DNA from: Perna viridis
Taxonomy: Eukaryota
DNA: 64,000 nt
Reading direction: 5' to 3'
Assembly (NCBI GenBank): GCA_037379345.1
Contig: CM074517.1
Location: forward strand, 34,906,001-34,970,000
Below, piece after piece: positions 5,601 to 61,704 of this stretch. Numbering within the stretch: the first letter of the stretch is position 1; each line of letters begins with the position of its first letter. The notes below the pieces were generated by a model. It was not told where the DNA came from. It made no database searches and saw only the letters and a program-made list of their open reading frames with translations. The position numbers were made by a program, and so were the translations under genes.

Positions 5601-6296
5601 ATGAGTGAAAACAAATTGCGAAAGTGCATACGGAAGGGCACAACAGATGTGAAAGCTGACTTATCATTTACTCCAGTGTTTGTTACCGACAGTAAAGGTA
5701 AATACTTGAGATGTTGTGCGACTGACGATAGAATAAAGTTTTATTATAAAAGTTCTGTAAATTCTGAAGATATCAAGAAGTGGTTTAAGAACATTCCGAA
5801 ACTAGTGTCGAAATATTCTAGAGTGAGAATATATTTATGGATTGGTACATGCGACTTGACAGTTAAATCTGGAAGATACATTGTTTTGAACAAGGATTCA
5901 TCTGTAAAAACATTCAAGGATAATTTACTATTTTTGAAGGACACATATGCATCAGAAAGTGTAAAAATTACATTTATTCATGTACCATATTATTCAATAA
6001 GGATCTGGAATAAGACGAAAGGACATAAATCACCAGAACAGTACACGAGTGATGATGAGACATTAAATTCACGAATAGATAATATAAATAACTACATAGA
6101 CGATTTGAATTCAGAGTTAAGTTCATATAGTCCGAAGATAAACGGAGACCTTCTGCGAAGTCGAAAACGTGCGAATTCCGTGCAAAGATACTCACAGAAC
6201 TTTAAACTGTTGCCTGATGGTATACACCCTGGTACAATTCTTGCGAAAGCCTGGTTTGTTACTCTAGTGAAAATTATAAACAGAGACTGTGTGTAG
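5601..6296 (+). CDS. SGNH/GDSL hydrolase (esterase-like) accessory ORF upstream of BEL gag
   Basis: Intact 231-aa ORF with block I FVTDSKG (Ser nucleophile), block III WIGTCD (GxND-like) and block V DGIHP (Asp/His). Confidence 0.85.
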   Translation: MSENKLRKCIRKGTTDVKADLSFTPVFVTDSKGKYLRCCATDDRIKFYYKSSVNSEDIKKWFKNIPKLVSKYSRVRIYLWIGTCDLTVKSGRYIVLNKDSSVKTFKDNLLFLKDTYASESVKITFIHVPYYSIRIWNKTKGHKSPEQYTSDDETLNSRIDNINNYIDDLNSELSSYSPKINGDLLRSRKRANSVQRYSQNFKLLPDGIHPGTILAKAWFVTLVKIINRDCV

Positions 6297-6620
6297 AGTG
6301 TAGGCAGGGGAAGCTCAGTCACACTCAGGTTTGTTTACATTATTATAATATTTCACTGTAGTTTCATGTTAAGACATATGCTGATTATAATATAAGGGTA
6401 ACACATGGAATTAATTTAGGTCAAGGTCAGGTTACATTTAACATGCATGTACATGTTGGTCATGATAGGCTAAGTGTCTATTATTAGTATTTAATACATA
6501 TATGTTATTAGTACATATATGACTCTGGTTTATTTTATGATATAGGCTAAAAATTGAGTGAACACTGTGTGTAGGCTGGGATTGCTCAGTCACACACAAG
6601 ATAAAGGTACATGTTTAGCC

Positions 6621-8100
6621 ATGTCACATGCTAATGAGACTGCTCAGGGTGCACAAGGTGTAGATAATAAGGTTAAAGATGAAAAACCCTCAAGAGACAT
6701 TAAGTATACAGAAAAGGGTCTAGAATATCAGATTGCTCAGAAATGTAAAACTGTCAGACAATTTATTTCTCAGTGGCATACTGAAGCAGAAAAGCTAAAT
6801 GTTGTTCTATCAGACTCTTCTGAAAGTAGTGTAATAACGAATGCACGAGACCATCTATTGAAAGTCATGAATGATCTACGAATAGAATGTAGCGTATTGA
6901 AATCATTGTTAGGAGAGAGCACAGAAGATGTCCCTAAGTATGATGACATTGAGAATGAACACCATAGACTCATATCTAGCGTTGCGGATGTACTATTAGA
7001 TCTGAAGAGTGACGTTGAAGTATTCTCAAAGGCACGTTCTAAAGTAAGCGTAAGATCTCGTTACTCATCTAAAAGGTCAGTAGGGTCAGATCATTCTGAG
7101 AAACAACAATTAACAGCAAAGAAGGAAGCACTGAAAATTGAGCTGAAATATATGGACAGGGAGTCTAAGGCGAAATTGGAATATGATCGAATTAAGGCTA
7201 TGAAAAAGTTGGACATCACTGAAGCTACATTGGAAGTTCATGACAGAGATGAAGATGACGAGTTAAATAGTAGGCTGGATTTACCTGTAGCATCAAAGGA
7301 CGAGAAAGTAAGCAAATATGTAAACTCATACGATCACAAAAAACCAACCAGAAACGACATTGATGATCAAGAACATGACATGACTCATCTTAAAAGTACT
7401 CCCTCTACTGGTATGCAAAATTTAATGGAGGCTGATGTCACAATGCCACAAACTTCTAAGGTCAGAATCGCGTCTCAAGAAAGTCATGGTGTGTCTAAGT
7501 CTAAGCCAACAAATACTACAGTCAGTTTTAGACCTCTACCAAATACACAGAACACGCTTAACCCAGATGCGAATGCGTTCACACCAGTCTCACATAATGA
7601 TATATCAGGGTCGGCTACCCGTGGAACAATGGCACCTACATTGGGTATGAATCAGACCACAGTAGATAATGGACTATCTGCGATTATGAAAACTTTGATG
7701 GACCATGTAAGTCTTGGCAGACTACCATCTCCGGAACCTCCTGTCTTCAGTGGCGATCCTCTGTTATATCCTGGATGGAAGGCAGCATTTAGTACGCTAA
7801 TAGAGCAACGACACATACCGAAAGCCGAGCAAATTCATTATTTGAAGAAATATCTCGCTGGACCAGCGAAGGAAGCTGTAGAGAACTACTTTCTACTTTC
7901 TAGTGATGCTGCTTATGATGAAGCCAAAATTCTATTAGACGAGCGGTTTGGGGATCCATTTGTGATCGGTAATGCATTTAGAGTTACAAGTTGGAAAAAT
8001 GGCCCAAGATTGCATCTCGAGACAGTAAAGCGCTCCAGAAGTTTGCAGATTTCTAGAAATGTTCAAAGCTGCACCCAACTGCATTCCATGGTGATGTAGA
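6621..8100 (+). pseudogene. BEL/Pao gag (coiled-coil plus DUF1759-like region), frameshifted and 3'-deleted
   Basis: PEPPVFSGDPLLYPGWKAAFSTLIE...HYLKKYLAGPAKEAVE...LDERFGDP. Frame is lost near 7985 and no zinc knuckles are seen. Confidence 0.85.
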
Positions 8101-8224
8101 TCATTCAAAGGTACAATCAAAGGACTCAAATAATCCCTTTACTTGTGAAACAAAGTCAATAGTTCAGGCGTCACATACGAGCATATCATTTCTTAGTAGT
8201 AGCAAAGCTCTTAGCAAGAACAGT

Positions 8225-11200
8225 ATGGTACTACCAGTGTACTTGTCACATAGCGATAATCCAGACAATGAAAGGTTGGTGTATGCTATGTTAGACACAC
8301 AATCTGATACTTGTTTCATCCTAGAGGATACCTGCAGATCTCTCGGTTTGGCTGGAACAGGTGTCACACTTAAGCTTTCTACAATGCTAGCAGAGAATAA
8401 AACCGTTAGAAGTGCTCGTTTTAAGGGACTACTGGTGCGAGGACACGACAGTACATAGAATAGCTCTACCAGATACCTTTTCTAGAAGTATTATTCCGGC
8501 TAACAAAAGCCACATACCCACTCCGGAAATGCGAGATCATGGTCTCATCTTAGTACCATAGCTGATAAATTAATGCCCATGGCAAACTGTGAAATAGACC
8601 TGCATATAGGTTACAACGGTCAAGGTACTACAACCGGTCGAAGTTTCTAGGATGTTCGAGTTGGACTTTAGTGAGAATACGGCATGCAATGATTCAAATA
8701 GTATGTCACAGGAAGACAAGAGATTCATTCAGGTTGTAAGTGACGGAATTGAGTTCGACGATAGTAGTGGACATTACAGTTTACCACTACCGTTTAAAGG
8801 AGAACCTCCTCATCTTCCTAATAATAGATTTGTGGCGATGCGGAGACTTACAAATCTCACCAAGCGATTCAAGGCGGGTAAACGATATTATGAGCTCTAT
8901 AAGGAATTCATGGAAAATCTTATTAAGAGAGGTCATGCCGAGATTGTTTCTCAGTCAGAAATGTCCCAAGATGAAGGCTTTGAATGGTATATTCCGCATC
9001 ATGGAGTGTTTCATCCACGGAAACCGGATAAGTTGAGAGTTGTATTCCACCGCAGTTCTAAGTTTAAAGACAAAAGTTTAAATGACCACCTACTGCAAGG
9101 TCCCGATCTAACAAACACCCTCATTGGAGTCTTATGTCGTTTTCGACAGGGAAAGATCGCATTTACATGTGACATTGAACAAATGTTTCACCAGTTCTAT
9201 GTTCACAAGAACCATCGCAATTATCTTCGTTTCCTTTGGTGGAAAGATGCCAACATGACGGAAGTTGCGGTTTATAGAATGTGCGGCCACCTGTTTGGAG
9301 CAACTTCTTCTCCTCGCTGTGCCAATTTTGGACTAAAACAAATCGCAGCAGATAATGAAGTTGAATTTGGATCTAATGTCTCAAATTTCCTTAGAAAAGA
9401 TTTTTACGTAGACGATGGGTTAAAGTAAGTAGCGTCTGTCAAAGAGGCCGTCCAGATGATAAAGGGTAGTCAAAATATATGTTCAAAGGGCGGAGTACGA
9501 CTTCACAAGTTAAGCAGCAATTCAAAAGAAGTTTTGAGTTCTATACCAGTCGAAGATCGAGCTGTCGGATTGAAAGACATAGATATTTTCAATCATCAAC
9601 TACCGATTGAAACAACACTTGGTGTTCAGTGGAACATTGAATCTGACGCATTTCAATTCAGAATTACATTGAGTGACAAGCCACTGACCCGTAGAGGAAT
9701 CTTGTCGGCAATAAGCTCTGTATATGATCCTTTGGGTTTCATATCACCAGTGGTATTGGTAGGAAAACAAATCTTACAACAAACATGCGGATATGATGTT
9801 GATTGGGACGACCCGATTCCCGAAAATTTGCATATGCGATGGAAACGGTGGAGAAGTGATTTGAATGAGTTAGCGAACCTACAAATCAAGCGATGTGTAA
9901 TTCCAGATGATTTCACTGATGTCAAAATTATGGAATTTCATCATTTTTCAGATGCAAGTTTGGTTGGATATGGTCAGTGTTCATATCTAAGATCTATAGA
10001 TGCTTCCGGACGAATTTATTGTTCGTTGCTAATGGGAAAGGCTAGAGTCGCACCTAGAAAAGCGATGACAATACCACGTTTAGAACTGACAGCAGCAGTA
10101 ATTTCAGTTAAGGTTCACGCTGTATTGAAACGGGAATTTGAGTTTGAGAACGTTTTGCACTTCTTCTGGACAGATAGCTCAGTTGTATTAGGCTACATTA
10201 TGAATGACGCTAAACGCTTTCATGTTTTCGTAGGTAATAGAGTTCAGCTTATCAGAGATCAAACCAATCCTTGTCAGTGGAAATATGTACAATCTAAGGA
10301 AAATCCTGCTGAAATAGCATCCAGAGGAGCAACAGCTTCAGAATTGATCAGCTCGAATTGGATAACAGGACCAACTTTCCTGTGGAATAAGGAATTACCG
10401 ACATCTCATGCAGTCACTGACTTGGAAGACATGAAAGACGATCCCGAGGTGAAGAAAGTTCAGTCATTTACGACTTGTACGGAAAATACGACTTCTTCGA
10501 TGTTAGATAGACTAGCTTATTTTTCTAGATGGGACAGAGCCAAACGTGCCATTGCTAATTGTATTCGTTTGAAGCGTCTGTTAAGGAAACGTCTGGACAA
10601 AGAAAACGAAACGACAAAGGAATGTGTTGAGCATAACTCTCAGACTGTTGAAGATCTACAGAGAGCTCAGGTTGAAATTTTGCGAATAGTTCAAGCTGTT
10701 CATTTTGAAAAGGACATTGATAAACTTAAACGGAATGTTGAAATCAGCAAAGATTCGAATCTTCATCGGTTGGATCCTATATTGGATGAAAATGGACTCA
10801 TCCGAGTAGGAGGTCGAACACGTCAATCGCTCGATGCATATGAAGTAAAACATCCGATCATTCTACCAAGGAAGGATCATGTTACTGACTTGCTGGTCAA
10901 ACACTACCATGAAAGAGTACAGCACCAAGGTCGAGGAATAACGACGAATGAATTGCGAAGTAATGGCTTCTGGATTTTAGGGTGTAGTTCAGCAGTAACA
11001 AACGTTATTTACCATTGTTACACATGCAGGAAGCTTCGTGGAAGGTCACAAGGTCAGAAAATGGCGGATCTTCCAAGTGATAGAGTTGAACCCGCACCAC
11101 CCTTTTCATACTGTGGCGTTGACTGCTTTGGACCGTTTCTAGTAAAAGAAAGGAGAAAGGAACTAAAAAGATATGGAGTGATTTTCACTTGCTTTACCAG

Positions 11201-12073
11201 TAGAGCCATTCATTTGGAAATTGCCAACTCCTTGGATACGGACTCATAAACGCTCTTCGTCGATTCTTATGTCTTCGAGGACCCATTCGTCATCTTAGGT
11301 CGGATAGAGGGACTAATTTTATCGGCGCTAAGAATGAGTTGGATCGCGCAGTGTCAGAAATGGACGACGAACGAGTAGCGGAATTTCTCAAAAATGAAGG
11401 ATGCGACTATTTCAATTTGAAAACTAATGTACCCTATGCAAGTCATATGGGAGGTGTCTGGGAGATGCAAATTAGGACTGTTAGAAGTATATTGGCAACG
11501 TTGCTGTCAAAATTAAGTCAACAACTTGATGATGAATCATTACGGACTTTCATTTGCGAAGTTACCGCAATCGTTAATTCACGTCCTCTCTCCATAGAAA
11601 ATGTGAACGATCCTCATTCACCTGTACTTACTCCCAATCACCTGCTGACAATGAAATCCAAGATCATTTTGCCACCTCCAGGAAAATTCATAAGACCAGA
11701 CTTGTATGTAAAGCGGAGATGGAGACGTATTCAGTATCTAGCGAATGAGTTTTGGTTAAGGTGGCGCAGAGAATATCTAAGTAACCTCCAAACTAGAGAC
11801 AAGTGGACCAAAACCCGTAGGAATTTCAAAGTTGATGACGTCGTCATGGTTATAGATGATAACCTGCCAAGAAATGTTTGGAAAATTGGCCGAATGTTTG
11901 AGGCTAATATTGACAATGATGGTTTAGTTAGGAAAGTTAGACTTTCGATTGGATCTTCTGATTTGGATTCTAAAGGTGTTAGAAGAACAAGCTTGATGGG
12001 ATTAGATAGACCTATTCATAAACTGGTTCTGTTACATGAGACCGAGGAAATCCCCGCCGATGAGCCTCAGTAA
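8225..12073 (+). pseudogene. BEL/Pao pol (protease, RT, RNase H/Pao domain, integrase) with stops and frameshifts
   Basis: VYAMLDTQSD (protease); YIPHHGV..KLRVVF, DIEQMF, FYVDDG (RT); HHFSDAS, TIPRLELTAA, FWTDS (RNase H); HHCC and DDE integrase motifs. Stop at 9426-9428, frameshift near 11247. Confidence 0.93.
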
Positions 12074-12279
12074 TATATGTATGTGTGTGCATTGACGCTT
12101 GTTTATTGATAAACTGTATTTTATCTGAACATGTAGTAAATATTTTGAAAATACTATTTGACATGAAATTTTGATGACGGTATTGGTCGCAATATTTTTA
12201 TACTAGTGCATTATTGTGTTAATACTTTTTCGATATTTTGAAATTTTGAAAATTGAAGAATTTCAATTTTGGGGAGCCA

Positions 12280-13086
12280 TGTAAATGTTAACTGTTTTCC
12301 GGAATTTTAATCCGGTACGATTCCGTATTTAGAATAGACACGTTGAAATATCTTACGCCATTTGCAATTTTGACGAAACTAATTTACGTTTTAGAGTTTA
12401 TAAGCCCAAAGAGGTATGTAATCGTAATATTATTAATGTAAATAATGTTTTCATATCATTGTTTCAATCGTGAGTACATTTTTATTTGAATGTTATTGAT
12501 TTTGAACAACTATTTTTAGAACGACAACATTGACGATTGTTTACACATACATTTTCTTTTAAATTGGCGTATTTTGATCGTATGCATCCATATCTCATTA
12601 TTTTGCGTAGATTTATAATTAATCAGCTTAATTCTATGATATTTCAAGTTAAAAAGTTCTTTGTCAAGTTTGATTTTTACGATTTTGTTGATAGGTAAAT
12701 AAACGTGAGGCTCCAAGTAATTATTTTATTGATTTTTAGAAATACTTTATAACCGAATTTATCGTAATTTTTCATGGTAAATTGTGTGTTATTTCATATT
12801 GTTTTGATGCTTCATGAACATGGTTTTGTACTCACACAATTTTATTGTATTTTTTACAGTTTTGACGTAGATGTTTATATGCAGTATCAGAGATTTCATT
12901 CATGGATTATTGTTGAAGTGTTGCGTAATATTGCGTTTCTGATTGCGAATAGATAAATGTTATATATTGCGAAATCCATATATAATATTATTGAAATCAC
13001 ATCACGTCTGACAATAAATATTTTCAGTACAAACTTTTGGGTTTCAATTAACAACTCCTCGCGGTGGTTCGATCACTGCCGTGATA
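12280..13086 (+). repeat. BEL/Pao 3' LTR
   Basis: Direct repeat of 4643-5451, preceded by the PPT at 12271-12279. Confidence 0.95.
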
Positions 13087-13254
13087 GTGATGATTATCTT
13101 AGTTTACATCTAGTAAGGCATTTTTTGTAACAAGTCCGTTTTGTTAAATATTTTTGCAGACTTGGTACAAATTCAACAACAAATTTGTACAAATAACTCT
13201 TAGGAGAGCCCTGAAAGGTTCCGTTTAGATCAAATGTTAAGTACCAGTCAACAT

Positions 13255-15144: not shown

Positions 15145-17622
15145 CTTGTTACATTTTTTTAAAGTTCAACGACAGCTTTCTCCACAATCTCTTAATTAAT
15201 TTTGATTAAACTTACCCCCAGCATGTTTGACTTAACATTGAATGTTAAATGTGCATTACAAGATAACTGCTTTAAGGATGCTTGCAATGAAAATTAATTC
15301 AACTAAATTGAAAGGTACCATATGTATTATCATGCAGAATTGTATTTCACCATTTCAGGGACCAGCCACCTGCTTGCCTCTATGGTGAATGACTAATTCA
15401 GTATATGCAAACTTGATAGCTAATCATATCACGTATACACTGTTCTCCAGAATTTTTGTACTCCTGCTTTTTGAGACGGGACATATTATGGCATACTGGT
15501 GTCCGCCCATCTGTTCTTCATACTTAGCACAATAAATCAAAAGTGCTGCCACCAACTTATATAGAAAGCACTTTATCTGCGTGTCTGTCTGTCTGTTCAT
15601 GTTATCTTTTAGATGTCTGATTGCAAGTAATTTCAGCTGTTGATATTAGAAATGAATATATATCAAGTAAGAAAAAATAAGATCACTTTAATTACAAATA
15701 AAATGGTATTGTAAAATATTTTATATATTTTGTTTGCATAAAGATTTTTACTTGTTTTATTCTACAGAGATGAGAAAGGAAGCATGTTTCATGGGTTAGG
15801 CTGACCAAGAAGAAAAAGAAGTGCCAAAAAGCTGATTATGGACCTGAATTTAGACTTTCATTAGAATTTTTATAATTTATTTAAATATTAAGATAAAAGT
15901 ACTGCTCATACAGCATTCTAAGTTTATATTCTTATACAGCATATTTATAGTCAGAGTGTCTTTGAATATTTTTTTCTATTTAGTTGTTTTACATTTGTGG
16001 TTGATAAGTGAATTTTCAAAGTGATTTCATTTCAAAGCTATAAAAGATTAAAAACTTCAAAAAACATCCCAAAACAATTAAAAAAAAGCTCTCTCTTTTA
16101 GTCATTCAGCTTTTTTATTCATACTGCACAGAAGAAAAATGCACTAAGTGAATATGTAAGGCATACACTCTCTATGACTATCATTATATTTTAACCCAAG
16201 ATATCCCATGGGAGAATTTAAAATCCCATGAATTTCAAATTGTAACTACAAATTTATTTTAGTAAATATTGTAAAACAAAATGCATTTTATTAAATCCCA
16301 TGCAAATCTGCATCCAATGGTTACTCACATGACATGGTAGGTTGAAGAAAAAGCGGCGGAAGATTTGCAATTTAGTGTTTTGCAAATTTAAATTGTCTCG
16401 TGTTTCTTGTGAGTTTCTTGGTAAATTGATCAGTGGAAATGGGGTCAGTGTCTCTCCAGGTAAACTTGATTGTGTCTGCCAATGGCCAATCCCAGAGAAC
16501 AAAAAAGAACTGCAGAGTTTTCTGGGTTATACGAATTATTACCGAAAGCATATACAGGGGTATGCAGGGATGACGGCCGTTTTGTACGAATTGTCAGGTT
16601 CTAAGTCTGAATTTAGTTGGGGTCCCGAACATGAAAATGCCTTCACTAATCTGAAGAAAGCTATTACCACCCCACCGTGTTTAGCATTTCCAGAGTCGGA
16701 CGGACTATTTATTTTGGACACAGATGCGTCTCATAACGCTAAAGATGCTGAATTATCACAGATCCAGTCTGGAAAAGAAAGGGTCATTTCGTATGCAAGC
16801 AACACATTGATTTCAGAACAAAAAAGATACTGTACTACTCGTAAAGAATTGCTTGCGGTAGTGAAGTTCTGCCGACATTTCAAACATTTCTTATTAGGCC
16901 GGAAATTCTTATTACGGACAGATCATCATAGTCTAGTATGACAATATAGTCATAGTCTGAAGGACAACTTGCTCGTTGGCTGGAGGAATTGTCGTTATAC
17001 GACATGGAAATTGTTCATCAAGCTGGGGCTAAGTATTCGAACGCAGATGGGTTATCCAGAATTCCGGACCGTTCAGATTGTGATTGTTACCATGCTGGAG
17101 CAAGACTTGAAGACTTGCAGTGTGGAGACTGTAAATTCTACACCAAAAAGCATGAGCAATGGGCAAGGTTTATTTTTGGAAGTTGATGAAGTGGTTCCAC
17201 TAGCTCGGAAAATCGACTAGGAGGAAGCTAATAGAGCCTCAACTTACCAAGCGCAAAAAGTCAGCATTGATCCAACTGAGAGCAACGAATCGATTATCAA
17301 TTTGGTTGACGGGTACTCTAATGAAGAATTAAGCAAATATCAACATGAAGACCCCGATATATTACCTTTAATAAGATGGTTAAAATCCGGAGATCCGGAC
17401 GAGTCGGAAATTCGCTTGAGTAGTCCAGCGACGAAGTACTTGTGGCAATGTCGGTCACAGCTGATATACGATGACAAAGTACTTAACTATGTATTGATTT
17501 TGTCAAACTTATTAAATTGTCTGAAGCCTCAAAGTGTACATGAATTTTGCAGTTATGAATGTCCAATGACAATAAGTGGAATATCTGTAGTTGTACCAGA
17601 ACTTAACGTGCCAACAGTAAGT

Positions 17623-18403
17623 ATCATTGACACCCATTTCCACTTAGATGTCTTACTTAAAAGATCGCATGCTGGATCTCTTATTGACATAGAGGAAGAT
17701 ATACCACAATTTCTTGTTTTACAGACAGGCGTTGCAAACTATGTCTTACCCCACCATTGGGACTCGTATATCAGGTCGATAATGACTCAAGGATATCCGT
17801 CACATTTGGGATACATTCTCGCGTGATTTTGGAGGCTAATACAAAAGCTATAAATAAACTGAAGTGCCTTTGAAACATTGTGTCGGTCTTAGTGAAATCG
17901 GCATCGACCTGACTGGGGATGCCAGGGCTGATCTTTCACTAAAAGATCGTCAGATAGATTTTATCCGAAGGGTGCTTCCAATAGCCAGAGATTTGGACCA
18001 GCCGGTTGTACTTCATTGTCGAGATAATGGTAACGGTGAGGCTTCTCGCATTGCATATGACTTATTGCCCGAATTTCTGGATGATGACCACCGCATACAT
18101 TATCATTGTTTCAATGGAACTCTGGACGAGGCTAAGAAATTGCAATGTAAATACAGTAATGTCTACTTTGGGATATCCAGTTTGGTCCTGAAAGAGCCCA
18201 ATTTATTTGATGTTGTGGCCAAGATAGATCACGGGAAATTATTACTTGAATCCGACGCCCCATATTTATCACCGGAGAAGCATATCCGTGTGAACACGCC
18301 ATATTGCTTATCGGTAGTGATTGAAAAGGTTAGTCATATCAAGAATTTACCCGTTTCGATCCTCGCAACTTACATGAACGAAAATGCAAGGCGATTAATG
18401 TAG
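17623..18403 (+). pseudogene. TatD-family nuclease domain inside the Gypsy element (frameshifted around 17770-17860)
   Basis: IIDTHFHLD, FGIHS (alternate frame), VGLSEIGIDL, PVVLHCR, HYHCFNG, LLLESDAPYL, NTP, NARRL: the complete TatD motif series. Confidence 0.88.
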
Positions 18404-18823
18404 TGTTACCAGGAAGGTTTCTGCTTTCTTACAGTAATTCGTAATGACATGAAAATAGTTGAGGAAGGCTAATGCTTTCTTCTCTTTGTTAAAATACTGG
18501 TATAAAACCCGTTAAATTATTATATTGTTTTTATTTTTATTACTTGTTCCGTGCTTCAATACGTATAAGCCACATTTGTATTTGATTTTTTATGATAAGT
18601 CTTAACAGGAGACCCTTACTGTGTTATTTTTGTATATATAATGACTGCATCTAAAAGCGGTTTTATCGGAACTCGTGTTCCATTCATGTGGGAACTTGGA
18701 AATGAACGTTTCAATGGACATTTTATTGACTTTAAATTGTGTTTATTTTCAGTTTATGTATGTGTTTATGATGATGGGCTTTGATTTCAAGTGTATAATT
18801 ATCTTTTATAAGATTGGGGGGGA

Positions 18824-19053
18824 TGTTACAGTATGGTGTTAATGTGTACCGTATGGTGCTCCCATTATAGGAGGAATATATTTGCTGCTATTATATAACA
18901 CCGAATTGTGTGGTCTCTTCCGGTTAATAAAGATAAGAAAAGTCTGCTGTATTTCTAAGCTCCAAGACTTTGTGTCTATAACTCAGACTGTGTGTCTGCC
19001 CCCTAATTTCTATGTGATTTAGGGATATTTTTACGCCACCTAGTTCGGTAACA
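18824..19053 (+). repeat. 3' LTR of the TatD-bearing Gypsy
   Basis: 6-bp terminal inverted repeat TGTTAC/GTAACA, upstream PPT, internal AATAAA. The matching 5' LTR is not in the window. Confidence 0.8.
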
Positions 19054-19232
19054 CTACCTTAAATCAACGCTCCTAGCGTGCGTTCAAACGAACGAATAAC
19101 GATGTGTGAACGCACGATAAATGATGCACGAGAGATAAAAATTGGAAACGTGAACGTTTCAAGGAGTGTATATGTACAAATGTTGTAAATACAACTTCCA
19201 TGTCAATAGAAGACAAGCAGCTTAAAATGTAT

Positions 19233-19459
19233 TATTATACACATGAGTTGAAATAGATTTCTCTTCAATTTATTATTTTCCGGAAACGGCATTTTTCCGT
19301 CATCCGTTTAGTTAAATTTTTTTGGAGTTGTTTTTGTGTCGTCTGTTGCAAGTATATGTGTATATGTGTTTTTTTCATTTTTGGGGATTTGACAATTGAA
19401 TAATATAAACATATACCATTATTATATACCTCTCGTTCCCCAAACAACAGATGGTAAAA
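19233..19459 (+). repeat. Gypsy 5' LTR
   Basis: Diverged direct repeat of 34207-34427. Confidence 0.88.
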
Positions 19460-19530
19460 TGGTGGAGAATTCAAAGACGGTAACATGATTGAGAATTCAA
19501 AGACGGTAAAATGATGGAGAATTCAAAGAA
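19453..19530 (+). promoter_or_regulatory. Triplicated LTR-end/primer binding site (3 x 26 bp; tRNA-Ala-like PBS)
   Basis: ggtaaaatggtggagaattcaaagac / ggtaacatgattgagaattcaaagac / ggtaaaatgatggagaattcaaagaa. Confidence 0.75.
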
Positions 19531-19598
19531 GATGTGAATATCAGCTAGGTAAATTTGAACTTTGTTTGTAATTTTGTGCCAGTTCTCGAACTTTCTGA

Positions 19599-20337
19599 AT
19601 GAGCTTATCCATAGTGAACAAAAGGATTCGGGACCTTTCCAAACGTCTTGACAATGGCAATTCGAGAAAAATTCCAGTATTATTAACAGACAGTAGAGGT
19701 TGAAATTTAGAGAACGTTACAGATCCTAACTAGATATCCAGAAAACAAGTTGTGTTTTTGGTATTCGCCTGGCGATGGGGTTGAAAAACAGTTTTCATGG
19801 TTACAGGAAAATTTACAACAGAAATTTCAGGACATTGGTTCTCAACAGTTAACTTTATATATATGATTGGGAGCGTGTGACTAACGAAAAAAGTTGATCG
19901 TTACATTGAACTTAAGTCAGAAACTAATTCAACAGTGAGTAAAATTTACGAGACATATAAAGAAATTCACTGATATATTGGACAATTTCCCTCTATCAAT
20001 ATTGTGTTTTTAGAACTACCATTTTACTCTATCTACCTCTGTTATGTTCATCATCGCCACCCCAAACCACAACAGTTTCGTGTTCAAGACCAGAAATTAC
20101 ATAAACAAATCATTGAAGTGAATAAATTTATTAACCAAATTAACATTTTGCACCATCAGAATTCGCCTTCTTTCTCACGACTTAGAAAGTAGCCGTAAAC
20201 GAGCAGGTCAAGTTAGACCTAGATACAGTTTTAATTGTGGATTGTACGTTGATGGAGTCCACCCAAATCCTTCATTGGCGAAACTTTGGCTGATACGTAT
20301 AGCACTTCGGCTACCAAGAGACTGTGGAATCATATAG
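19599..20337 (+). pseudogene. SGNH/GDSL hydrolase pseudogene upstream of Gypsy gag, homologous to 5601-6296
   Basis: Manual translation across stops and frameshifts gives IPVLLTDSRG...LYI*LGACD..KKVDRYIEL...VFLELPFYSI...SRKRA...RYS...DGVHPNPSLAKLWL...RDC. Confidence 0.88.
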
Positions 20338-20522
20338 ATCTAGGTCTGAGTGAGATCTTTCACACTTTTACGACTGCATGCATTCAGGTGCGTAGGGTAA
20401 TCCGTACTACAAGACTTTGTATCCTAAATATGTAATAAAAATAATTTGAGGTCTTCCTCATTTGTACGTGAAAAGTGTTTGGGTGAGATAATTCTCATTT
20501 ATTTACTAATCAGTATAAATGT

Positions 20523-21703
20523 ATGGCTGATGTAGAATCCGATTTAAGTGATGCTAGTTCAAGTCTGTTCAACTCTTCTGTTCTCTCTGACAGATTTTTG
20601 GTAGAAAACGAATTTCATATTGATAAATTAAGTTCGTTCAATAGCCGTTTCTGACATTGAAGAGCTGTCCGATAGCACAAATACTTCTAACGTCTCTGAC
20701 AGTCCTCTGCTACCTCCAGTTCTCACCCTACAAACAGATCATAAAACTATACACCCGAAAGCAAAATCAGCTCCAAGTACAACAATCATAGAAAAACTAG
20801 CTGTGTGTAGAAAATTTGGGGGTTACCCGCATGAAAATGGTTCAATTTTTCTGAATGAATTTGATTCATATGCAACATTACACAACATACACGCTGGGGA
20901 CCATCGGCGTATAATTGCAGCGTTTCATTTGCACCTTACGGGGCCAGCTGTGACATGGTTTAATTCTCTCGACAAAAGTCACAAAGAAACCTGGGAAATT
21001 TTTTAGAGTCACTTCAAAAATGGATATGTCAATTTGAGTTGGAATCTCAAATTATCCTCATCTCAGTCATTGGAAGACTATCACTGCAAGCTTGTCGAAA
21101 AAGCACAACTTTTGTCAAAACCAGATCATGAAATATTATGTAAATTTGTGAAGGGTCTACCAGAAAAAACTTCTTTGTAAGGGCCAGTAACCACAGTTCT
21201 AGTGCAAGCGTACTCTCCGCAGCAAAAATGGGAGAGGCGAGTGGATACAGAATCCACACGGAGTTAAGTGTAGCTTCGGCTAATCCACAAAATACAACTG
21301 GGCAAAGTACACCTAAACAAACATATGACACGAAATCTGAAGTTACAGAGTTGAAAGAACAGGTGACAAATTTAACGAACATGGTACACAAATTCACGGT
21401 ACAAACTGAACCTTCCCAACGGAGACCAGCAAATAATTACAAACCGAGCGAAATACCGAACATGCTCGGGAACAACGCACACCAATGCGTAAAAATGAAC
21501 AAAAAGAAATATTCACTTGCAGTAAATGTGCCGGTGTCTGTCACATACAACTAAATTGCCTATGGAATAGCAAAGGAGAGCCAAATACTGATGTTAGGTG
21601 CCAAATGTGCAACCAATACGGCCATTCCGCATTTCAATGTCAAAAGTTTAACTCCACCACCCCGAGGGACACAGGGCACGCTCCTCCGGGCGGTCAATCT
21701 TAA
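20523..21703 (+). pseudogene. Gypsy gag with two zinc knuckles
   Basis: KFGGYPHENG..FLNEF..HLTGPAVTWF (capsid-like); CSKCAGVCHIQLNC and CQMCNQYGHSAFQC; multiple frameshifts. Confidence 0.85.
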
Positions 21704-21834
21704 GTGCCAGAAAGCGATCTCCTTCTCTGAGCCGACCAAGATATCATTTAACTGCAAATTCTTTAAAAGTTCAAGATGTTAGTGATTTATTTTCAGATTA
21801 TACTGATTCGGATAAAGAGGTAAAGTCCAAATTC

Positions 21835-24260
21835 TTGTACATGCCTGTAAAAGTACACGGTTTAAATATAACTGCGTTGGTTGATACTGGAAGCTCAATG
21901 AATGTTATATCTCGACAGTTTTATGACTCCATAAATTTTAATTGTAAAAGTCCAATTACAAATGTTTATGAAAGGATAACATTAGCTAACAATCAATCAA
22001 TTGACATTATGGGCACAACTAGCATCAAAGTTTCTGTGCCGAGAGGCAAACACTGGATAAGTGTCTATGTTCTCACACAAACTTCACATCCGCTAATCAT
22101 CGGTACCAGTTATTTAACTAAGCATACTATTGTTCTAGATTTTAGCAAATTTAGAATGTATTGCAAGGAGGCTAAAGTAAAAAGCCGGAGAAGAGTCACC
22201 ATTCCGCCGAACTCAGAATTAGTTGAATTCGGAAAATTAAACAATAATATTTTGTATGGTAATCAGGGCATATGTTCAAGTAGTGAATATCTAAACAAAA
22301 GGGGAATAATTGTTGCAAATACTGTAGTTATAGTCAGTAACAGAAATCTAGTCCCCGTCAGATTATTTAATGTTACAAATGAAAGTATAATGATTCCGAA
22401 AGGAAAATTGTTGTCAACATTTGAGATTTTAGATCAAATAATTGTTCAAAATATGCAATTATCGGAGCAATCTGGCGACGAGCAAGTGGACTCAAAGTTT
22501 TTGTCATATTTTGAAATGCCTGAAAATTTGAGTGATAAAGAGGAAGCTTAGTTGCAAGAATGCTTAAAATCTCACAAAAATTTGTTTGTGACCGACGAAA
22601 ACCCAGATCTAGGTTATTAGTGCATCATAGAATAACTTTAAAACCGGATTATCGCCCGAAGTACCAGAGACCATACCGTTTACCTCCCGATAAAAAAGAG
22701 GCCCTACGCGAGCACCTTGATGAACTATTACGTCAGAACATTATTGCACCAGTGAATGAATCCGAGAGAGTACCAATAACAAGCCCTGTTGTACTAGTAT
22801 CTAAGCGTACTAAACCAAAGAAAGCTTCCAATGAACGACATAAGAGTCCATTGCAGTATAGATTTTGCTGCGATTTTCGTTATTTGAATAGCCAAGTACA
22901 AGATTTTTGCTACTCGATTCCAGACCTGCAGGACCTCTTTTTCCAACTAATCACCGAATTTTCTAACCTCTATTGATATGTCTTCAGGATTCTTTCAGCA
23001 ACCGATTCATTCAGATAGTCAACGGTTTACCGCTATCAACACATGCTATGGTACTCTCAAATTTCTCAGATTACCGATGAGCCTGAAATCATCACCATCG
23101 TCTTTCCAACTTCTGATGGACAAAGTATTACATGGCCTCACTTTTAAAATTTATTTGTGTTACTTAGATGACATACTAATTGCATCGGAAGCTTTTGAAC
23201 AACATTTGGATGACTTGAGTAATGGGTTTTCTCGCTTAGAGGAAGCTGGTTTGAAGTTGGGACCAAGAAAATGTACTTTAGCACGAGATTCATGTATTTT
23301 TTCAGGCCACCTTACTTCAAAGAATGGCATTCAGCCACCTCCTGATCATATAACAACAATTCAAGAAATACCCTTTCTAAATCTGTACGTGAACTGAGAC
23401 GTGTAGTTGGTCTCTTTAACTGGTTTAAAAAGTATATTGATAATTTTAGTGTGACAATTGAACCACTGACTAGACTTTTACGGAAGAATATGCACTTCCG
23501 TTGGACTTTAGAACAAGAAACCGCTTTTATTGCTATGAAATCACTGCTCGTTTCATCGCCTATTTTAGCATTTCCGGATTATATCGTTCCGTTTCACCTA
23601 GGGGTTGACACGTCTGCAAAAGTAATAGGTTATGTACTTTTTCAATACCAAAAGGATGAAGATGACATTGAATTACGCAGAGTTATTACAGAATGTGACC
23701 ATCAAGCGTTGAAACCATTGTTCGGAAAACAGTTAAAAGGTGCTATTTGTGAAAGTTGGATAGCCATTATACAACAGTACAGTTTTGAAATAAGATACAA
23801 GCCAGCAAAGGAAATGCAGGTGGCCGACGCTCTGTCACGTAACACAAACCTGAAACAGTGCAGGATGAATTTTCTAGTCCAGACATTGAGGATCCATACT
23901 TTCCTTATCAAAAGGACATTGTTGGTGATATTATTGTGAAAAATGAAAATAAATTTCCTGTTACTTTACATTCTGACTCTAGTGATACAGAGCAGGTAAA
24001 TAACTTTTGTGTAGTGAAACCATCTTTATTGAAGCCACCTTCACTCACCAAAACCGACTTGAACCCTGACTCGATGTACGACGCAGATACGGAATGTGAC
24101 AATATACTAGATTTGAAAAAGTCTAAACTTTGTCGAAGTCAAAAAAATTAAATTACAAGTAGACCATTCTCACATTGAATCTAGTGCTTTTGAAGAAAGT
24201 AACAATCACTGTGACAAAATTGACAATTCAAGTAATGATGACACGACAAAAACCTATACT
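21835..24260 (+). pseudogene. Gypsy pol, 5' part (protease, RT, partly deleted RNase H, linker)
   Basis: ALVDTGSS; YQRPYRLP, YRFCCDFRYLN, CYLDDILI; GVDTS, ECDHQAL, VADALSR. Confidence 0.9.
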
Positions 24261-24477
24261 AGAAAGAGTTACAGTCCTTGATCTGCTAAGGTGTATTGAG
24301 GTTAGCTCCGACAAAAAATGATTTATTACAAATTCAATTGAGTGTTGTTTATCCAGATTTGCTCTGGAAGTTCCTAAGACATTAACGTTTACATGTAAAT
24401 GCATTTTGATACATTAGAAGGCAGTATTCTGATTGTAAAATAACTTTTTTCGTTGAACGAAACAACAATAACAAACA

Positions 24478-25673
24478 TGGCGGCGTCCTATTCTTATGTT
24501 GCGAGAACAGACACTAATGCTAGTGGTGATAAAAAAATTGATGACGACCCTAATTCTGTGAAACCAATTTTCGTAAAAGACAGTGATATATTTGGTTCTG
24601 TAATTCCCAAAAAAGAATCATTCGTCACACATGTTGAAATATACAAGGCTATCGGCGAAGTAGTAGACCCATATACAATCAAAGGTATCCAACGTATTCG
24701 TCGTATGCGGCGTATATATATGGACAACCAGGAAGGTCGTTTGTCGTTGTTAACAAAGGGCATTGCGCTGAGGGGTAAGCAAATAAACATTCACACACAC
24801 AATCCAAACAACCCTTTGACTGCAAACCTGGCCATAATGAAAGTTGTAGTGAAAGGGGTCCCTCTTAGTGCTGATGATGGCATTATTAAAAGAACAATAG
24901 AACTTAAAGGGGTAAAAGTGGATTTCATAACAAGAGCACATATCAGAGTTGATGGGAGACTCACTAACTGTGAAAATGGAGACAGGATCCTATTGTGTAA
25001 AACCTTTATAGAACCTCTACCTAAATTCATGAAAATGGGGAGATACAGTGCTATAGTCTTACACAGTGGCCAGCCTACAGACAGTTATTCAAATGAGTCA
25101 AATGTTAAAACATGCAATAAATGCTTTGAAACTGGGCATATGATTCTAGAATGTCCAAATGATTGGAAATGTAAAAGGTGTAATGAATCAGGGCACAGAC
25201 AAATGGATTGTCCAGAAGCATTAACACCAGAAATGTTTAGTGACAATGAATGTAAAGATGATGATGATGATGTTGAATTAAGTGAAAATGAAAATGATGA
25301 TAATGATAGTACAAAAGCTGATGAGCCTGAGGTACAACAAGAATAATGTGAACAACAAAAACAGACAATAAAACAACAACAGACAATGAAACAACAGCAG
25401 AAAGAAAAAAGGGGTCAACAGTCAAATGGACAGGCCTTTGGGCAATCTGACAAGACACCCCATCAACAAGAAAAACCAAGAACTGGGAGAAATCAAAACA
25501 CTTCCAAAAAAAATGAAAAGTCTGTTTCTTTTGTTAAATCTCAAGGTACAATCAACGCTTCTGTAAACACTCCAGAAAGTAGAAATCAACATGGTAAGGG
25601 TAGAAACAAAAATCAACACACTCCTCCAACACCTGAGGAGAGGGACAAAGGTAAAAAAGCAAATAAAGGTTAA
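24478..25673 (+). pseudogene. LINE ORF1 (RRM-like region, two CCHC knuckles, acidic then basic tail); one in-frame stop at 25344
   Basis: CNKCFETGHMILEC and CKRCNESGHRQMDC. ORFs 24453-25346 and 25386-25673 are in the same frame. Confidence 0.88.
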
Positions 25674-25735
25674 TTACTATGTAAAAGTGTAATTTTAATT
25701 AAACCCCAAAAAAAACTTTAAAAAAAAAGATAAAA

Positions 25736-27127
25736 ATGGTATGTAAAAACAAGCTCTTCAAAAGAGTAAACATTGAATTGTGTTTTTTTGTAAAGATAAT
25801 GATTCTTTTCTTAAAGTTTGTTGTATTGAATTTAATTGTGATGTATATTTCACATAGAGATGATATTAATATTTGTGTGAAGGATTCTAATATAAAGAAA
25901 ATCAAAACTTGTTTTAGTTTTTCTTTTGTATGCAATACATCTTTAATGTTGTGTAACATTATACTTAAGTTGTACCGTACAGGCACTTACTTTATTAAGT
26001 TGTTACAAACTATGAAAAAATGTAAAACAATACAAGGTTCTAATGTAAAATCAAAATATTTAATAGAAAGTGGTAATAACAGAGTTGCCAAAATAGAGTT
26101 AATTATTTCAAACTATGTAGCTGATTTAATTTACAAAAACTGTAAAATGAGTTTTACCAACAATAGCTTGTTAAATAATTCGTTTACAAACAAAAACAAA
26201 AGAATAAAATATGTCAAGATCATATATCCTATTTATGTTTACAAACGTTTATTAAAACAGCTGAAGTTTGTTTACGTTTTATTTTGGATTTTACCTATTC
26301 TATTTTTAGCAAACTATATTTGGGTTTTTGTTTATACCGTTTTATAGTATGTATGTACGACACTGTCCATTTAAATTCTGATTTAAGACCAAATTTTGGA
26401 AATTTACTTATCACTTCATATTTCATGCGATCTAGAAGTGGTTACAATATTTGTCTCAATCGGTGTTTTCATAACATCTTATACGTGTACTTGCATATGT
26501 TACACGATGTCTGCAAACAATATTTGCTAGCTTATACTGAAGAAACTTATAAAATCGAGAAATACTCACAGTATTTTATCCGTTTGTGTCTCGAGCTCCA
26601 CGCCTTTGTAGGGTTTGCTGTCTCGGTGCGTTTCAAAGAACACATTAATAATTTTTATCTCGTTTTGAGTAAGGAAACACTTGTTCAATCCGATTTCATC
26701 ACATTTTGTTCCAAAGTTTTCATCTTACAGCTATCTTTCACAGAATACGCAATTGTCACAACTTACATTTTTTATATTTCTCAGGCTAATACCCATTGTC
26801 ACTTCAGAACAATAATTTTTCCCTTTTTTACGGGTGTTAATGTTATTTTAGATGAAAAAAAGTGAATATCCAGGTAAAATAGCACACGCTCTTGACCACA
26901 TGTTTTTTGTCTATCATTATAAAGCTTTGACCCAGACAAGGTCAATAGGTGCTATCAGGTCACGTACACTTTACCCAATGTTTGTACCCGTTTTAAGTGT
27001 GTTGTGTAACTATATCTGTGTCATCGTTTGTGTAAAGTTTTTTGTTTGTGTAAATGTTAATAAATGTTATATTGATATATATGTATTTAATATAAATATT
27101 ATTATCACTATTTACAATGGGATCTGA
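25736..27127 (+). CDS. Chain of overlapping hydrophobic ORFs (203, 193 and 91 aa) in the LINE inter-ORF region; unknown product
   Basis: Long stop-free frames in very AT-rich DNA tile the whole spacer; several F/L/I/V/Y-rich stretches. Confidence 0.4.
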
Positions 27128-30100
27128 AAATGTATTAAATCTAAATACTTTAAATGTAAACGGTTTGAAATGTAGAAATAAACGGAATAGAGTTTTTGAA
27201 TGGATTAAATCACAAAAGTGTTCGATTTGCTTTTTACAGGAAACACATTTTGATATTAATATTGAAAAAGAAATGTTGAAATACGACGAATTTAAAGTTT
27301 ATTGCAGTAATGCAACAACAAACAGGTGTGGTGTTGCAATAGTAATTAAAAAATCATTAAATCATAAAATTATTGATACATTTTCAGATGAGGAAGGTAG
27401 GATCATTTTGATTAATATTGAAATAGATAATTGTATATTCTCTTTATTATGTTTATATGCGCCTAATTGTAAAACTAGTAGAAATGCATTTTTTAAAAAG
27501 TAAATAGTATGCTTAAAGAACATGGGATTGGAATTCCTATATTGGGGGGTGATTTTAACGATAATTTCAAAAGTATTGATAGGAAAAGTACTAGAGTAGG
27601 GACATAAAATAACCAACCAGTTAATAGTCTTAAAGTTTTAATAAAAGAAAATAAGTCAACTGATATCTGGAGACTTTTAATTGAAAATAAACAACAATTT
27701 ACTTGGCGGAGAAAGGATAAGTCTCAAGCGAGTCGCATAGATATGATATTGATCGGAAAAGATTTTATCCCGTATGTAGAATGTTGTAAAATTAAGCCAG
27801 CTGTCATTAATTATACAGATCATCAGAGCATATTTTTAAAGTTTAAGACCGGTGCGTCAGAAAAAGGGAGGGGTTATTGGAAGATAAATAAATCGGTTTT
27901 AAATGATGATGTTTATGTAAATACGATTAATCTATTAATCGATAAGTGTTTTAAAGATAAACAAAATACTAATGACATACAATTGGCATGGGATGTTTTC
28001 AAAATTGAGGTAAGGGAGATAACTGTTGAATATTGCAGAAATAAAGCAAAAACAACTAGGGAAAATTTGAAACTTCTTGAGAAAAAATTGGAACATAAGT
28101 TGAAGGTAAGGGATGAACAAGACGTAGATTCAGATATTACGGATAAGGAAATTAATAATCTTGAAATTGAAATTGGTAAAATTTACGATGAAAAGGCAAA
28201 AGGGGCACAAATCAGATCTAGGGAAAAATGGATTGAACTTGGTGAAAAAAATAATTCGTATTTTCTTGGTTTAGAAAAACAGAGTCAAATTAAGAAATCA
28301 ATTAACAAATTAACGTCCGGGGATGGAAACATTCTAACAGATCAGGGGGAGTTGCTAACAAATATTAAAAATTATTATGAAAAGTTATATTCATCTTCTT
28401 ATCCAGACAAAATACTTAGTGACCAATACATATTTAATACTAATCTTGATCCTAAAATAGGCGAAATTGACAAATCTAATTGTGACGGAGAAATAACATT
28501 GGACGAATGTACTAACGCTATTTTTAAAATGAAGCTTAATAGGTCACCTGGTTTAGACGGACTAACTGTCGAATTTTACAGAAAATTTTGGGGGAAATTG
28601 AAAAATATTACAGTTTCGGTTTTAAATACTGGCTATAGAAACCAAAACCTCACATATTCACAACGTACAAGTGTATTAACACTTTTATTTAAAAAGGGAG
28701 ATCCTTTGTCTTTGGATAATTATCGCCCAATTTCGCTCTTAAACGTGGATTTGAAACTTCTGTCATATATTCTGGCTCAAAGGTTGAAACACATTTTACC
28801 TGATATCATTAATGAAGATCAGACTGGTTATGTTAAAAATCGTTTTATTGGTTTCAACCTGCGGCAAATACAAGATATTATCGACTACACAGAGTTATAT
28901 AAAATAGAAGGGGCAATTGTATTTGTTGATTTTTCAAAAGCGTTTGATTCCCTAGAATGGAACTTTATGTTAACTGTTCTTAAACATTTTGGTTTTAATG
29001 ATTCATTTATATCGTGGGTTAAAACGTTGTATAATGGTATTCAAACTTGTGTCACTAATAATGGATGGATTTCTGAAATATTTAAAAACACAAGGGGAAT
29101 ACGCCAAGGATGTCCTTTATCTGCTCTTTTATTTGTATTATCTGTAGAAATAATGGCATCACGAATACGAAGTAATAATGACATCAAAGGTATCAATATC
29201 AAATTAGACCAAAGAAATCATAGTATAAAAATTTCTCAGTTAGCAGACGATACTACTCTGTTATGTAGCTCAAAGCAAGAAGTAGAATTTGCTATGAACG
29301 AAATTGAAATTTTTGGGTCTTTTTCTGGGTTAAAATTAAATCGAAACAAGACGGAAGGAATATGGGTAGGGAAGTTAAAATCTTGTAAAGATAAAGTTGC
29401 AGGAATTAGTTGGACTATAAATCCAGTAAAAACTCTGGGGGTATATTTTGGCTATTGTAGGGAAGAATGTGAAAAATTAAATTGGGAAAATAGAATAAAT
29501 AAGATGAATAGACTTTTTGATACATGGGGAAAGAGAAACCTAACAATTTTAGGAAAAATTTTAATAACAAAAACACTTGTCTTGCCAATTTTTACATATA
29601 TAGGGTCCACTTGTATCGTACCAGAAGTGTACATTAAAGAAATAGAAAGTAGATGTTTTAAATTTATATGGGATAATAAACCCGATAAAGTAAAACGAAC
29701 ACAATTATTGGTAGATATGAAGTAGGGGGATTGCGAATGGTAGACATAAGGAGTTATTTTTGTTCATTGAAAGCCGCGTGGGTGCAAAGATTAGCTATCG
29801 GAGAAATTGTAAATTGGAAGGTTATTCCTCATAAATATTTTAATGGTATTGGTACAAATTGGTTAATTTTTATGACGAATAATGATAATAGTATAAAACA
29901 TAAATATTTTAAAGATATTCCTGGTTTTTACAAAGAAGTATTAAAATGTTGGAATTTATCAGGTGGGGGCAATCAAGAAAAACCTACTACATTCACAGAA
30001 ATAAGAAAACAAATATTATGGAATAATAAATATATTAAATTTGAAAATAAACCTGTAATTTTTGATAATTGGATTAAAAGTAATATAATTTATATAAATG

Positions 30101-30909
30101 ACATAATAGATGCAAATGGATGCATATCTCAAGAAATCATTTTAAGTAAATTGAAAAACAAATCTAACTGGATAGCAGAAATTCAAACTTTGAAAAAAGC
30201 CATACCTTTCGAATGGAAACAATCTTTATCATCAGAAAATTCTGTAAAGAGTGTGGTTCATTTTAAAAGATTTCAAATTTGTTGGAAAAATATAGATATA
30301 AATGTAAAAAATATTTCGAACAAGATATTGTATGAATCATTTATAGTTAAAAAATTTGAATCCTCTATTGGAGTAAGCAAATGGTTAAGAATTTTTGATA
30401 TAAAAGACGTGTTTTTTATGCCAAACATTTATAATTTTATTTTTGGTTATTTACAAGAAAACAAATTGAAGATATTTCGATGGAAACTTCTACAATTCAT
30501 AATTCCTAACAGAAAACTATTATGTAAGTGGAAAATAACTCAAAATATTCAGTGCAATTTCTGTAATGAAGACGAAGATTATCTTCATTACTTTATATCC
30601 TGTTCGTGCTTAGATAATTTTTGGACAAAAATACAAGAAATTCTTCGTGTATGTAACATGAATTTTGAGATTACTTTAAAACATCTTGTTTTGGGATATA
30701 AAATATTTGATGAAACATATTTTTGGTTAAATCTCTTATTAACTATAATAGGCTTTTCTATTTATAAAGCATACTATGTATCTGAACATAGAACCAAACA
30801 TGTTAATACTTTTGATATCTTTGTTAAAGAATTGAAGACTACAATTAACTCAGTTAATAGTAATTCAAAATTAATATTCATCAAAAATTATGTATCAAAC
30901 AACTATTAG
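27117..30909 (+). pseudogene. LINE ORF2: APE endonuclease, RT and C-terminal Cys domain, with a few disruptions
   Basis: NVNGL, LQETH, YAPN, GDFN, SRID, TDH; SPGLDG, YRPISLLN, QGCPLS, LADD; CNFC..EDYLHYFISC. Confidence 0.93.
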
Positions 30910-31023
30910 AAGTGATATTGTATGTTAAGTTGAATGTATTTATGTATTAGTAAATTTATGTTTGAAATATTTTATTTTGACACTTTTTACTACCCTGGGT
31001 AACTAGTGATCATGAACAGGGAG

Positions 31024-61701: not shown

Positions 61702-61704
61702 TTA

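Follow-up and report, generated by a model that had tools for sequence, protein, structure and literature searches.

A TatD nuclease domain in the third gene of an apparently unpublished Gypsy retrotransposon lineage of invertebrates, and its decayed copy in Perna viridis

The window, by which we mean the whole 64-kb stretch of Perna viridis DNA that was analysed (64,000 nucleotides), is AT-rich and repeat-rich and contains a dead Gypsy copy that is reduced to its 3' half and carries an internal deletion (Table 1). This copy keeps the end of the reverse transcriptase (RT), RNase H and the pre-integrase linker in Gypsy pol order, followed by a TatD domain and by an LTR of the TG...CA type placed directly after the polypurine tract (PPT), as is characteristic of Gypsy elements; the 230-bp LTR and purine tract named in a preliminary description of this DNA were confirmed at 18810–19053. 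No integrase lies between RNase H and TatD, no gag, protease or front part of RT belonging to the TatD copy was found in the window, and blastn detects no second copy of the 230-bp LTR within it. Because the window holds no 5' LTR, the target-site duplication of this copy is not readable. On its 5' side the element abuts a very high-copy repeat that ends near 16404, where read depth changes in a step.

Table 1. Parts of the decayed TatD-bearing Gypsy copy, in window coordinates
Feature	Position	Strand	Basis or remark
RT end and RNase H of Gypsy pol remnant	16411..16938	+	Pfam RT_RNaseH_2, E 1.5e-28
RNase H-to-integrase linker of pol, with stops and frameshifts	16939..17490	+	Six-frame reading
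Internal deletion joint, as judged from homology	17490..17497	+	Pol homology ends at 17490, ORF3 homology begins at 17497
Leftover tail of ORF3 N-terminal helical domain	17497..17622	+	Aligns with conserved HW+..L region of family proteins
TatD (class II, HxH) domain of ORF3, pseudogenised	17623..18403	+	Three frames, breaks near 17780 and 17855-17870
AT-rich 3' untranslated region, without poly(A)	18404..18809	+	Sequence
Polypurine tract	18810..18823	+	Directly 5' of LTR
3' LTR, 230 bp, TGTTAC...GTAACA ends	18824..19053	+	blastn

The TatD domain of the window contains no intron and retains all six metal-ligand residues and an extra catalytic Glu, but these are spread over three reading frames, with the HxH motif in frame 1 (17635–17643), a GIH motif in frame 3 (about 17808–17816), and the E/H/H/D ligands in frame 2 (17858–18403). 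The last 181 codons alone (17858–18400) match the Pfam TatD family PF01026 with an E-value of 1.6e-33. The preliminary description had placed a TatD with every metal-binding motif between pol and the PPT and LTR; its location, its ligands and its lack of introns all hold, whereas the idea of one intact ORF does not, and the ORF at 17302–17826 contains only the first ~50 TatD residues before the domain passes out of frame.

Several other mobile elements share the window. A BEL/Pao element occupies 4643–13088, with terminal repeats that are 98–100% identical, DUF1759 and Peptidase_A17 domains, and ORFs split by stops or frameshifts. A second, unrelated Gypsy element extends from about 19225 to 34427 between two LTR-like repeats (94–96%), and an APE-RT LINE at about 24444–30909 interrupts its pol between the RNase H and integrase parts. 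The leaders of both elements carry SGNH/GDSL-esterase-like ORFs on the plus strand, at 5676–6257 in the BEL/Pao element and at 20158–20325 in the second Gypsy, which match the same region of a related locus (L433:553-1362) with E-values of 2e-24 and 0.002, respectively; that region itself gives only a weak Lipase_GDSL_2 match (E 0.044). The earlier remark that the window holds a second kind of accessory enzyme is borne out by these two ORFs. The TatD element is flanked by very high-copy repeats at about 15400–16404 and 19051–19172, both covered by reads in RNA run X14, the first mainly on one strand, and the second resembles a MITE whose short inverted ends touch the end of the LTR. Further along, an ORF at 61662–62243 encodes a RING finger (C3HC4, E 6.5e-5) downstream of a 24/48-bp tandem array.

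The preliminary description had TatD joined to the pre-integrase linker in one ORF (17302–17826), with the integrase core absent. A single ORF (17221–17826) does extend from this linker as far as the HxH motif and integrase is indeed missing, but comparison with a complete relative (locus L132, described below) suggests another explanation for the junction. Window positions 16411–17490 align with L132 pol residues 552–930, the tblastn match ending just before the Integrase_H2C2 domain at residue 944, and position 17497 corresponds to residue 192 of the separate L132 ORF3. What the window lacks relative to L132 is thus ~2.4 kb comprising the integrase, the spacer between pol and ORF3, and the first ~190 residues of ORF3, the zinc-finger half. 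The bin at 17490 is also the commonest start of family matches upstream of the TatD motif (14 matches). In favour of a reading in which TatD is naturally fused to pol and replaces integrase are the continuous ORF and a 138-nt contig of run X11 that is identical to 17392–17525; this contig, however, proves only that the window copy is present in another data set. Against such a fusion, the joint lies partway through the helical domain of ORF3 and immediately ahead of the integrase zinc finger, a position expected from a deletion, frameshifts occur on both sides of it, and none of 34 long family proteins is a pol fusion. By homology, then, what looked like a linker–TatD fusion marks the site of a ~2.4-kb internal deletion in a pseudogenised copy. 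Replacement of integrase by design, already largely refuted, is very improbable, and intact relatives encode a whole integrase together with TatD as the C-terminal domain of a separate ORF3.

Read data from the same species suggest that the window copy has relatives there. Several contigs that are ~90% alike cover TatD in two DNA data sets, and a diverged 693-nt contig from run X2 joins the end of TatD through the 3' untranslated region to the LTR. The summed contig depth of the LTR is 2–3 times that of TatD in runs X1 and X2. Single-locus contigs have depths of about 55–63 in run X1; summed depths, a rough stand-in that gives no copy number, reach 80–260 for pol, 210–350 for TatD, and 700–875 for the LTR, a pattern that fits a small multicopy family. 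RNA run X14, of which 19% was read, has almost no reads over the TatD element and offers no evidence either way.

These copies bear on the possibility that a processed host TATDN gene landed by chance in a decayed Gypsy element. The window TatD is intronless, as a retrocopy would be, and NCBI labels close oyster relatives "putative deoxyribonuclease TATDN2". Yet the region around 17497–18810 has no poly(A), no repeat ends and no target-site duplication of its own; the preliminary description had named the first and last of these as signs of an independent retrocopy. Moreover, several diverged copies cover TatD in the same species, one of them linking it to the LTR, and the ORF3s nearest to the window TatD belong to elements that also supply the RNase H nearest to the window pol. 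We regard a chance host insertion as even more improbable than a natural fusion.

Loci of relatives were fetched by a finger-region pattern and profile scans. Flanking DNA accompanied 80 of 110 metagenome matches, and 2 of 85 pattern matches in genome_contigs showed a family match. Screening of 113 loci (L020–L132) identified 28 family members, the others being chance matches, and all seven loci with pol matches fell among the 28. One locus, L132, represents a whole element, with an open gag of 718 aa, a pol of 1448 aa, a separate 505-aa ORF3, a purine tract and an LTR, assembled as a collapsed circular contig with one junction. Its pol contains protease, RT, RNase H, Integrase_H2C2 and rve domains in the order PR-RT-RH-IN, and the window pol matches it from residue 552. 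As a separate observation, the L132 gag ORF opens with a weak helix-hairpin-helix match (L132:705-850; HHH_3, E 0.0011). The RNase H of the window is 51–60% identical to those of six TatD-bearing elements.

The same arrangement recurs across the family. Twelve family loci have 750 bp or more of DNA upstream of ORF3, and pol lies there in 10 of them (L030 and L083 have no pol match). In L028, L052, L058, L071 and L078, as well as L132, both pol and the separate ORF3 behind it are open. In a second subfamily, pol lies upstream in four of six loci, in the same order. In the genome bin that is the source of L132 (G001), integrase was matched 121 times and 21 contigs carry a non-bacterial TatD; an integrase lies upstream on the same strand in 13 of these 21, and 11 near-full matches all rank within the top 21 of the 121. 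The eight remaining TatD contigs have no integrase match, two of them being only 2.6 and 3.7 kb long. The integrase matches of this bin lie mostly in long open frames. Its integrase and TatD contigs are apparently host-animal repeats that contaminate a bacterial bin, and family proteins labelled Nitrospinota and Thiodiazotropha are probably contamination of the same kind. The answer to whether TatD is a separate ORF3, is fused to integrase or takes its place is therefore, for intact relatives, a separate ORF3.

The env gene of errantiviruses is expressed by splicing. In 9 of 10 loci examined, ORF3 starts about 140–470 bp past the pol stop and in another frame. An acceptor-like site, consisting of a pyrimidine tract and a YAG within 14 nt, precedes the first ATG in 6 of 20 ORF3s compared with 100 of 2433 control ATGs (4%), with a threshold picked after looking at the data, and the other 14 of the 20 starts lack a strong acceptor. 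This signal suggests env-like splicing in some members, and production of ORF3 from a spliced subgenomic RNA is, in our judgement, somewhat more likely than not.

Searches with the TatD piece of the window returned long proteins with a C-terminal TatD. A profile built from nine sequences, run against representatives at 50% identity, found 1174 proteins with E-values of 1e-30 or lower, and among the best 150 of the 1174 most match its N-terminal part as well. The family is diverse, forming at least 150 clusters at 50% identity. Named members, which come from marine invertebrates, include oyster proteins annotated "TATDN2" or "YabD", an uncharacterised sea-urchin protein and hypothetical proteins of Capitella, and some clusters contain 76–79 members at 90% identity. 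What viral contigs yielded was limited to ordinary TatDs and pattern matches due to chance, BFVD contributed a single TatD-like viral match with no closer one, and atlas look-ups returned generic TatD clusters only.

Family ORF3s are about 500–1000 residues long and follow one order, with an acidic or low-complexity leader, a basic patch, one or more C2H2-type fingers, a helical domain and a class II TatD domain. From 179 family proteins, the 159 with HxH at the expected place were kept (HxH being the selection rule) and 20 were dropped; all six metal ligands (H, H, E, H, H, D) are kept in 155 of the 159 domains and the second Glu in 158. A model of family protein P0020 (pLDDT 79.6) matches TatD/YcfH structures (Foldseek E 8e-15; Z 30, rmsd 2.2 over 251 residues), and matches in whole-protein fold searches with this model were filled by the TatD barrel. 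The family members are thus, by motif and model, class II TatD domains with a full metal site and are predicted nucleases. Scans found no DEDDy family match in ORF3, its nuclease being TatD, and no RT, RNase H or integrase domain in any of 34 long family proteins. In many ORF3s (alignment A3) a Cys-rich loop (CxC...C...C) follows the first catalytic Glu; this loop is absent from the window copy.

The N-terminal region has no Pfam family for its zinc-finger and helical domains. Where enough of the N-terminus is available (126 proteins), 113 carry a CxxC..H..HxP finger, and a basic patch stands just before the finger in 82 of 117, compared with 11% of random windows. When the N-terminal profile was compared with the PDB, the matches were mostly tandem C2H2 proteins (CTCF, SALL4, Zif268), although weak ones with E-values of 0.08–5, above normal cut-offs. 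Only 8 of 125 family proteins contain a hydrophobic, membrane-like window, and a CCHC knuckle occurs in 3 of 125. An acidic FxPDY motif near the N-terminus was seen in 13 of 125.

Selection and co-inheritance provide further evidence for an ORF3 gene that belongs to its element. Among 13 close pairs drawn from 30 coding sequences, the five unsaturated pairs give a TatD dN/dS of 0.14–0.17, a range that indicates purifying selection on the coding sequence of the domain and answers the question, raised with the preliminary description, of how TatD has been selected. RNase H and TatD identities correlate across seven elements (Spearman 0.52, Mantel p 0.038), with TatD turning over faster (28–41% identity, against 47–68% for RNase H). 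On an integrase tree, with a very long branch as outgroup and 14 rows without TatD, the presence of TatD requires 4 changes, compared with 10.3 in shuffles, and none of 500 shuffles was as low; among the rows, L046 is labelled "none" yet has a truncated family ORF3, and L434, L435, L437 and L438 have less than 600 bp of downstream DNA.

The remaining nine rows without TatD are of two kinds. Three loci (L431, L432 and L433) have no comparable ORF3. L431, whose integrase is 73% identical to that of L132, and L432 have no ORF of at least 120 aa past the integrase, and ORF3 is dispensable for some kin as far as these contigs extend, which is 1.2–1.4 kb past the integrase. Six other relatives (L436, L439, L440, L441, L442 and L443) carry a C2H2-headed ORF3 in the same slot. 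Pfam finger models match five of these six ORF3s, two of them over the cut-off, and the family finger profile scores 15.4 bits in L440 and 6.7 bits in L442, against at most 3.3 bits in 350 shuffles. The six ORF3s are 250–550 aa long, with a low-complexity middle and often a coiled-coil-like end. Because a zinc-finger ORF3 is often retained in kin that lack TatD, the nuclease resembles an effector that such a gene acquired. We infer that a zinc-finger gene occupies the slot and that part of the lineage joined TatD to it, the direction of gain or loss being a proposal.

Where the TatD domain came from was approached with a quick tree and profile scores. The tree, in which the one eukaryotic cellular TatD is the unnamed P0194, sets 55 family rows apart from bacterial TatDs with P0194 between them (SH-aLRT 91), and the long-branch P0212 falls inside the family. 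The window TatD falls among family ORF3s, next to P0041. The family profile scores E. coli YcfH at 112 bits, TATDN3 at 65 and TATDN1 at 44. The position of P0194, the names given by NCBI, and the scores of TATDN1 and TATDN3 below that of YcfH make up the case for TATDN2 ancestry, and the domain may well derive from a eukaryotic class II gene, probably TATDN2-like, that was fused onto an older zinc-finger ORF3. An origin from a bacterial YcfH-type gene is a less likely alternative to this plausible donor.

Taken jointly, the gag-pol-ORF3-PPT-LTR layout, the domain order of ORF3, the signs of purifying selection, the co-inheritance with pol, and the deletion and frameshifts of the window copy are, in our estimate, about 95% likely to be correctly described. 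TatD as an accessory gene of a Gypsy lineage, which the preliminary description had proposed, is upheld by the layout of the relatives, the clustering on the integrase tree and dN/dS.

What the nuclease does for the element is a matter for hypothesis. Human TATDN2 is reported to be a nuclear RNase for hairpin RNA and the RNA of R-loops that requires E593, E705 and D707 (PMC10711561), and the residues of the ORF3 family match these by motif position. Medaka Tatdn2 is described as clearing R-loops in germ cells (PMC12709183). The equivalence by motif and the activity of the medaka protein favour removal of RNA–DNA hybrids or nascent RNA, and a protein that combines a class II TatD with C2H2-type fingers and a basic patch, and is not a membrane protein, is best taken as a nuclear nuclease tethered to nucleic acid. 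We hypothesize that the zinc fingers hold the nuclease, within the nucleus, on nucleic acid at loci of the element itself; there TatD would remove R-loops or nascent or structured RNA that would otherwise stall transcription or feed silencing; by clearing its own RNA in RNA–DNA hybrids or hairpins, the element could stay transcribed. TatD enzymes are also described as acting on single-stranded DNA and AP sites, and TATDN1, TATDN3 and bacterial TatDs act on DNA (PMC10085689), so that a DNA substrate would be compatible with the sequence as well. Judged from motifs and domain order, nuclear tethering with R-loop or nascent RNA removal is a possibility that we place slightly below even odds, and we favour it over the two accounts that follow. 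These take up the roles suggested in the preliminary description, removal of immunogenic nucleic acid and cDNA processing, both of which are rivals to a nuclear role that the zinc-finger head and basic patch make likelier.

The first locates the nuclease beyond the nucleus and makes it a factor against sensing or silencing, which would destroy stray cDNA, RNA–DNA hybrids, double-stranded RNA or small guide RNAs ahead of their use by host sensors or the piRNA/siRNA pathway. A separate ORF in the env slot that is under purifying selection and dispensable in some kin fits a gene in conflict with the host, TatD turns over faster than RNase H, and TatDs of parasites are reported to degrade host extracellular traps (PMC10085689). 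The C2H2-type head, the basic patch and the zinc-finger-only ORF3s of relatives suggest nuclear tethering instead, and dN/dS is low with no sign of an arms race across the TatD domain as a whole. On balance we consider an extranuclear role unlikely.

The other account makes TatD a replication helper in the particle that would trim primer tRNA or the 3' ends of cDNA, back up RNase H or act on damaged cDNA. TatD enzymes combine 3'-5' exonuclease and AP-endonuclease activity, as summarised in PMC10085689, the same role was proposed for the DEDDy ORF3s of rotifers (PMC5408684), and the few CCHC knuckles noted above would suit a particle protein. Since the RNase H and integrase of the carriers are intact, ORF3 lies outside the Gag-Pol polyprotein with no obvious route into the particle, and close kin exist without ORF3, we consider a helper role less likely still than an extranuclear one. 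Combining the favoured nuclear role with the history outlined above gives an old and diverse Gypsy lineage with a zinc-finger third gene, one large branch of which would have added a TATDN2-like, sequence-tethered RNase and, by erasing R-loops or nascent RNA where its copies have inserted, would escape germ-line silencing; as a whole, this composite is tentative and rather doubtful.

The lineage itself is real, conserved, widespread in invertebrates and apparently unpublished. Our literature search, which had Repbase Reports and subscription journals outside its reach, found no paper that places TatD in a retrotransposon and none on a C2H2 zinc-finger ORF3 of Gypsy LTR retrotransposons. Reviews of accessory enzymes name DEDDy, GDSL and others (PMC6338049, PMC6431247), and the accessible portions of one of them (PMC6431247) and of the rotifer ORF3 paper (PMC5408684) do not mention TatD. 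Gypsy clades including Mag and MolGy1-16 are listed in PMC6238403, the available text of which mentions no third ORF or nuclease. A gene called "TATDN2" is recorded among the non-Hox genes in the Hox cluster of the giant squid, beside transposon-derived genes (PMC6962438), and may be such an ORF3.

If the composite reading given above is true, many "TATDN2" and "TatD" annotations in molluscs, echinoderms and annelids would be transposon ORF3s. The TatD/TATDN2 "gene families" of marine invertebrate annotations probably consist of transposon genes, and so do the TatD proteins of some symbiont genome bins. The lineage adds a second, unrelated nuclease fold to the few third-gene enzymes of LTR retrotransposons and shows repeated recruitment of 3' nucleases to this slot, here with a gene that is old. 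The zinc-finger head shared with TatD-less kin leads to the testable idea of a nuclear counter-defence tethered to nucleic acid. The window copy is a relic and the value lies in the clade, to which the present analysis adds the deletion map, the zinc-finger ORF3 of TatD-less kin, the acceptor signal, the dN/dS estimates and the survey within the host.

Three known systems offer comparisons. As in env-bearing gypsy elements such as the errantiviruses (described in PMC5408684), a third ORF lies between pol and the 3' LTR and, in some members, begins after an acceptor-like site; unlike errantivirus env, ORF3 is not a membrane protein but a predicted enzyme. With the cellular class II TatDs (TATDN2, TATDN3 and YcfH/YjjV; PMC10085689, PMC10711561, PMC12709183) the ORF3 domain shares the HxH motif, the metal ligands and the fold, and with TATDN2, as reported for that protein, a long N-terminal extension with a basic patch. 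Unlike cellular TatDs, it resides in a multicopy mobile element, is intronless, and has an N-terminal module outside any Pfam family and, in many members, the extra Cys-rich loop. The closest precedent is Juno/Vesta of bdelloid rotifers, in which ORF3 encodes a DEDDy 3'-5' exonuclease (Rodriguez, Kenefick, Arkhipova 2017, PMC5408684). Both cases involve a Gypsy-type element, an enzymatic third ORF in the env position, intact catalytic residues, family-specific presence and a role that is unproven. The differences are that the enzyme described here is a TatD TIM barrel rather than a DEDDy nuclease, that it sits behind a C2H2-type zinc-finger and helical domain, and that the TatD form is spread across many families, its named members coming from oysters, a sea urchin and an annelid.
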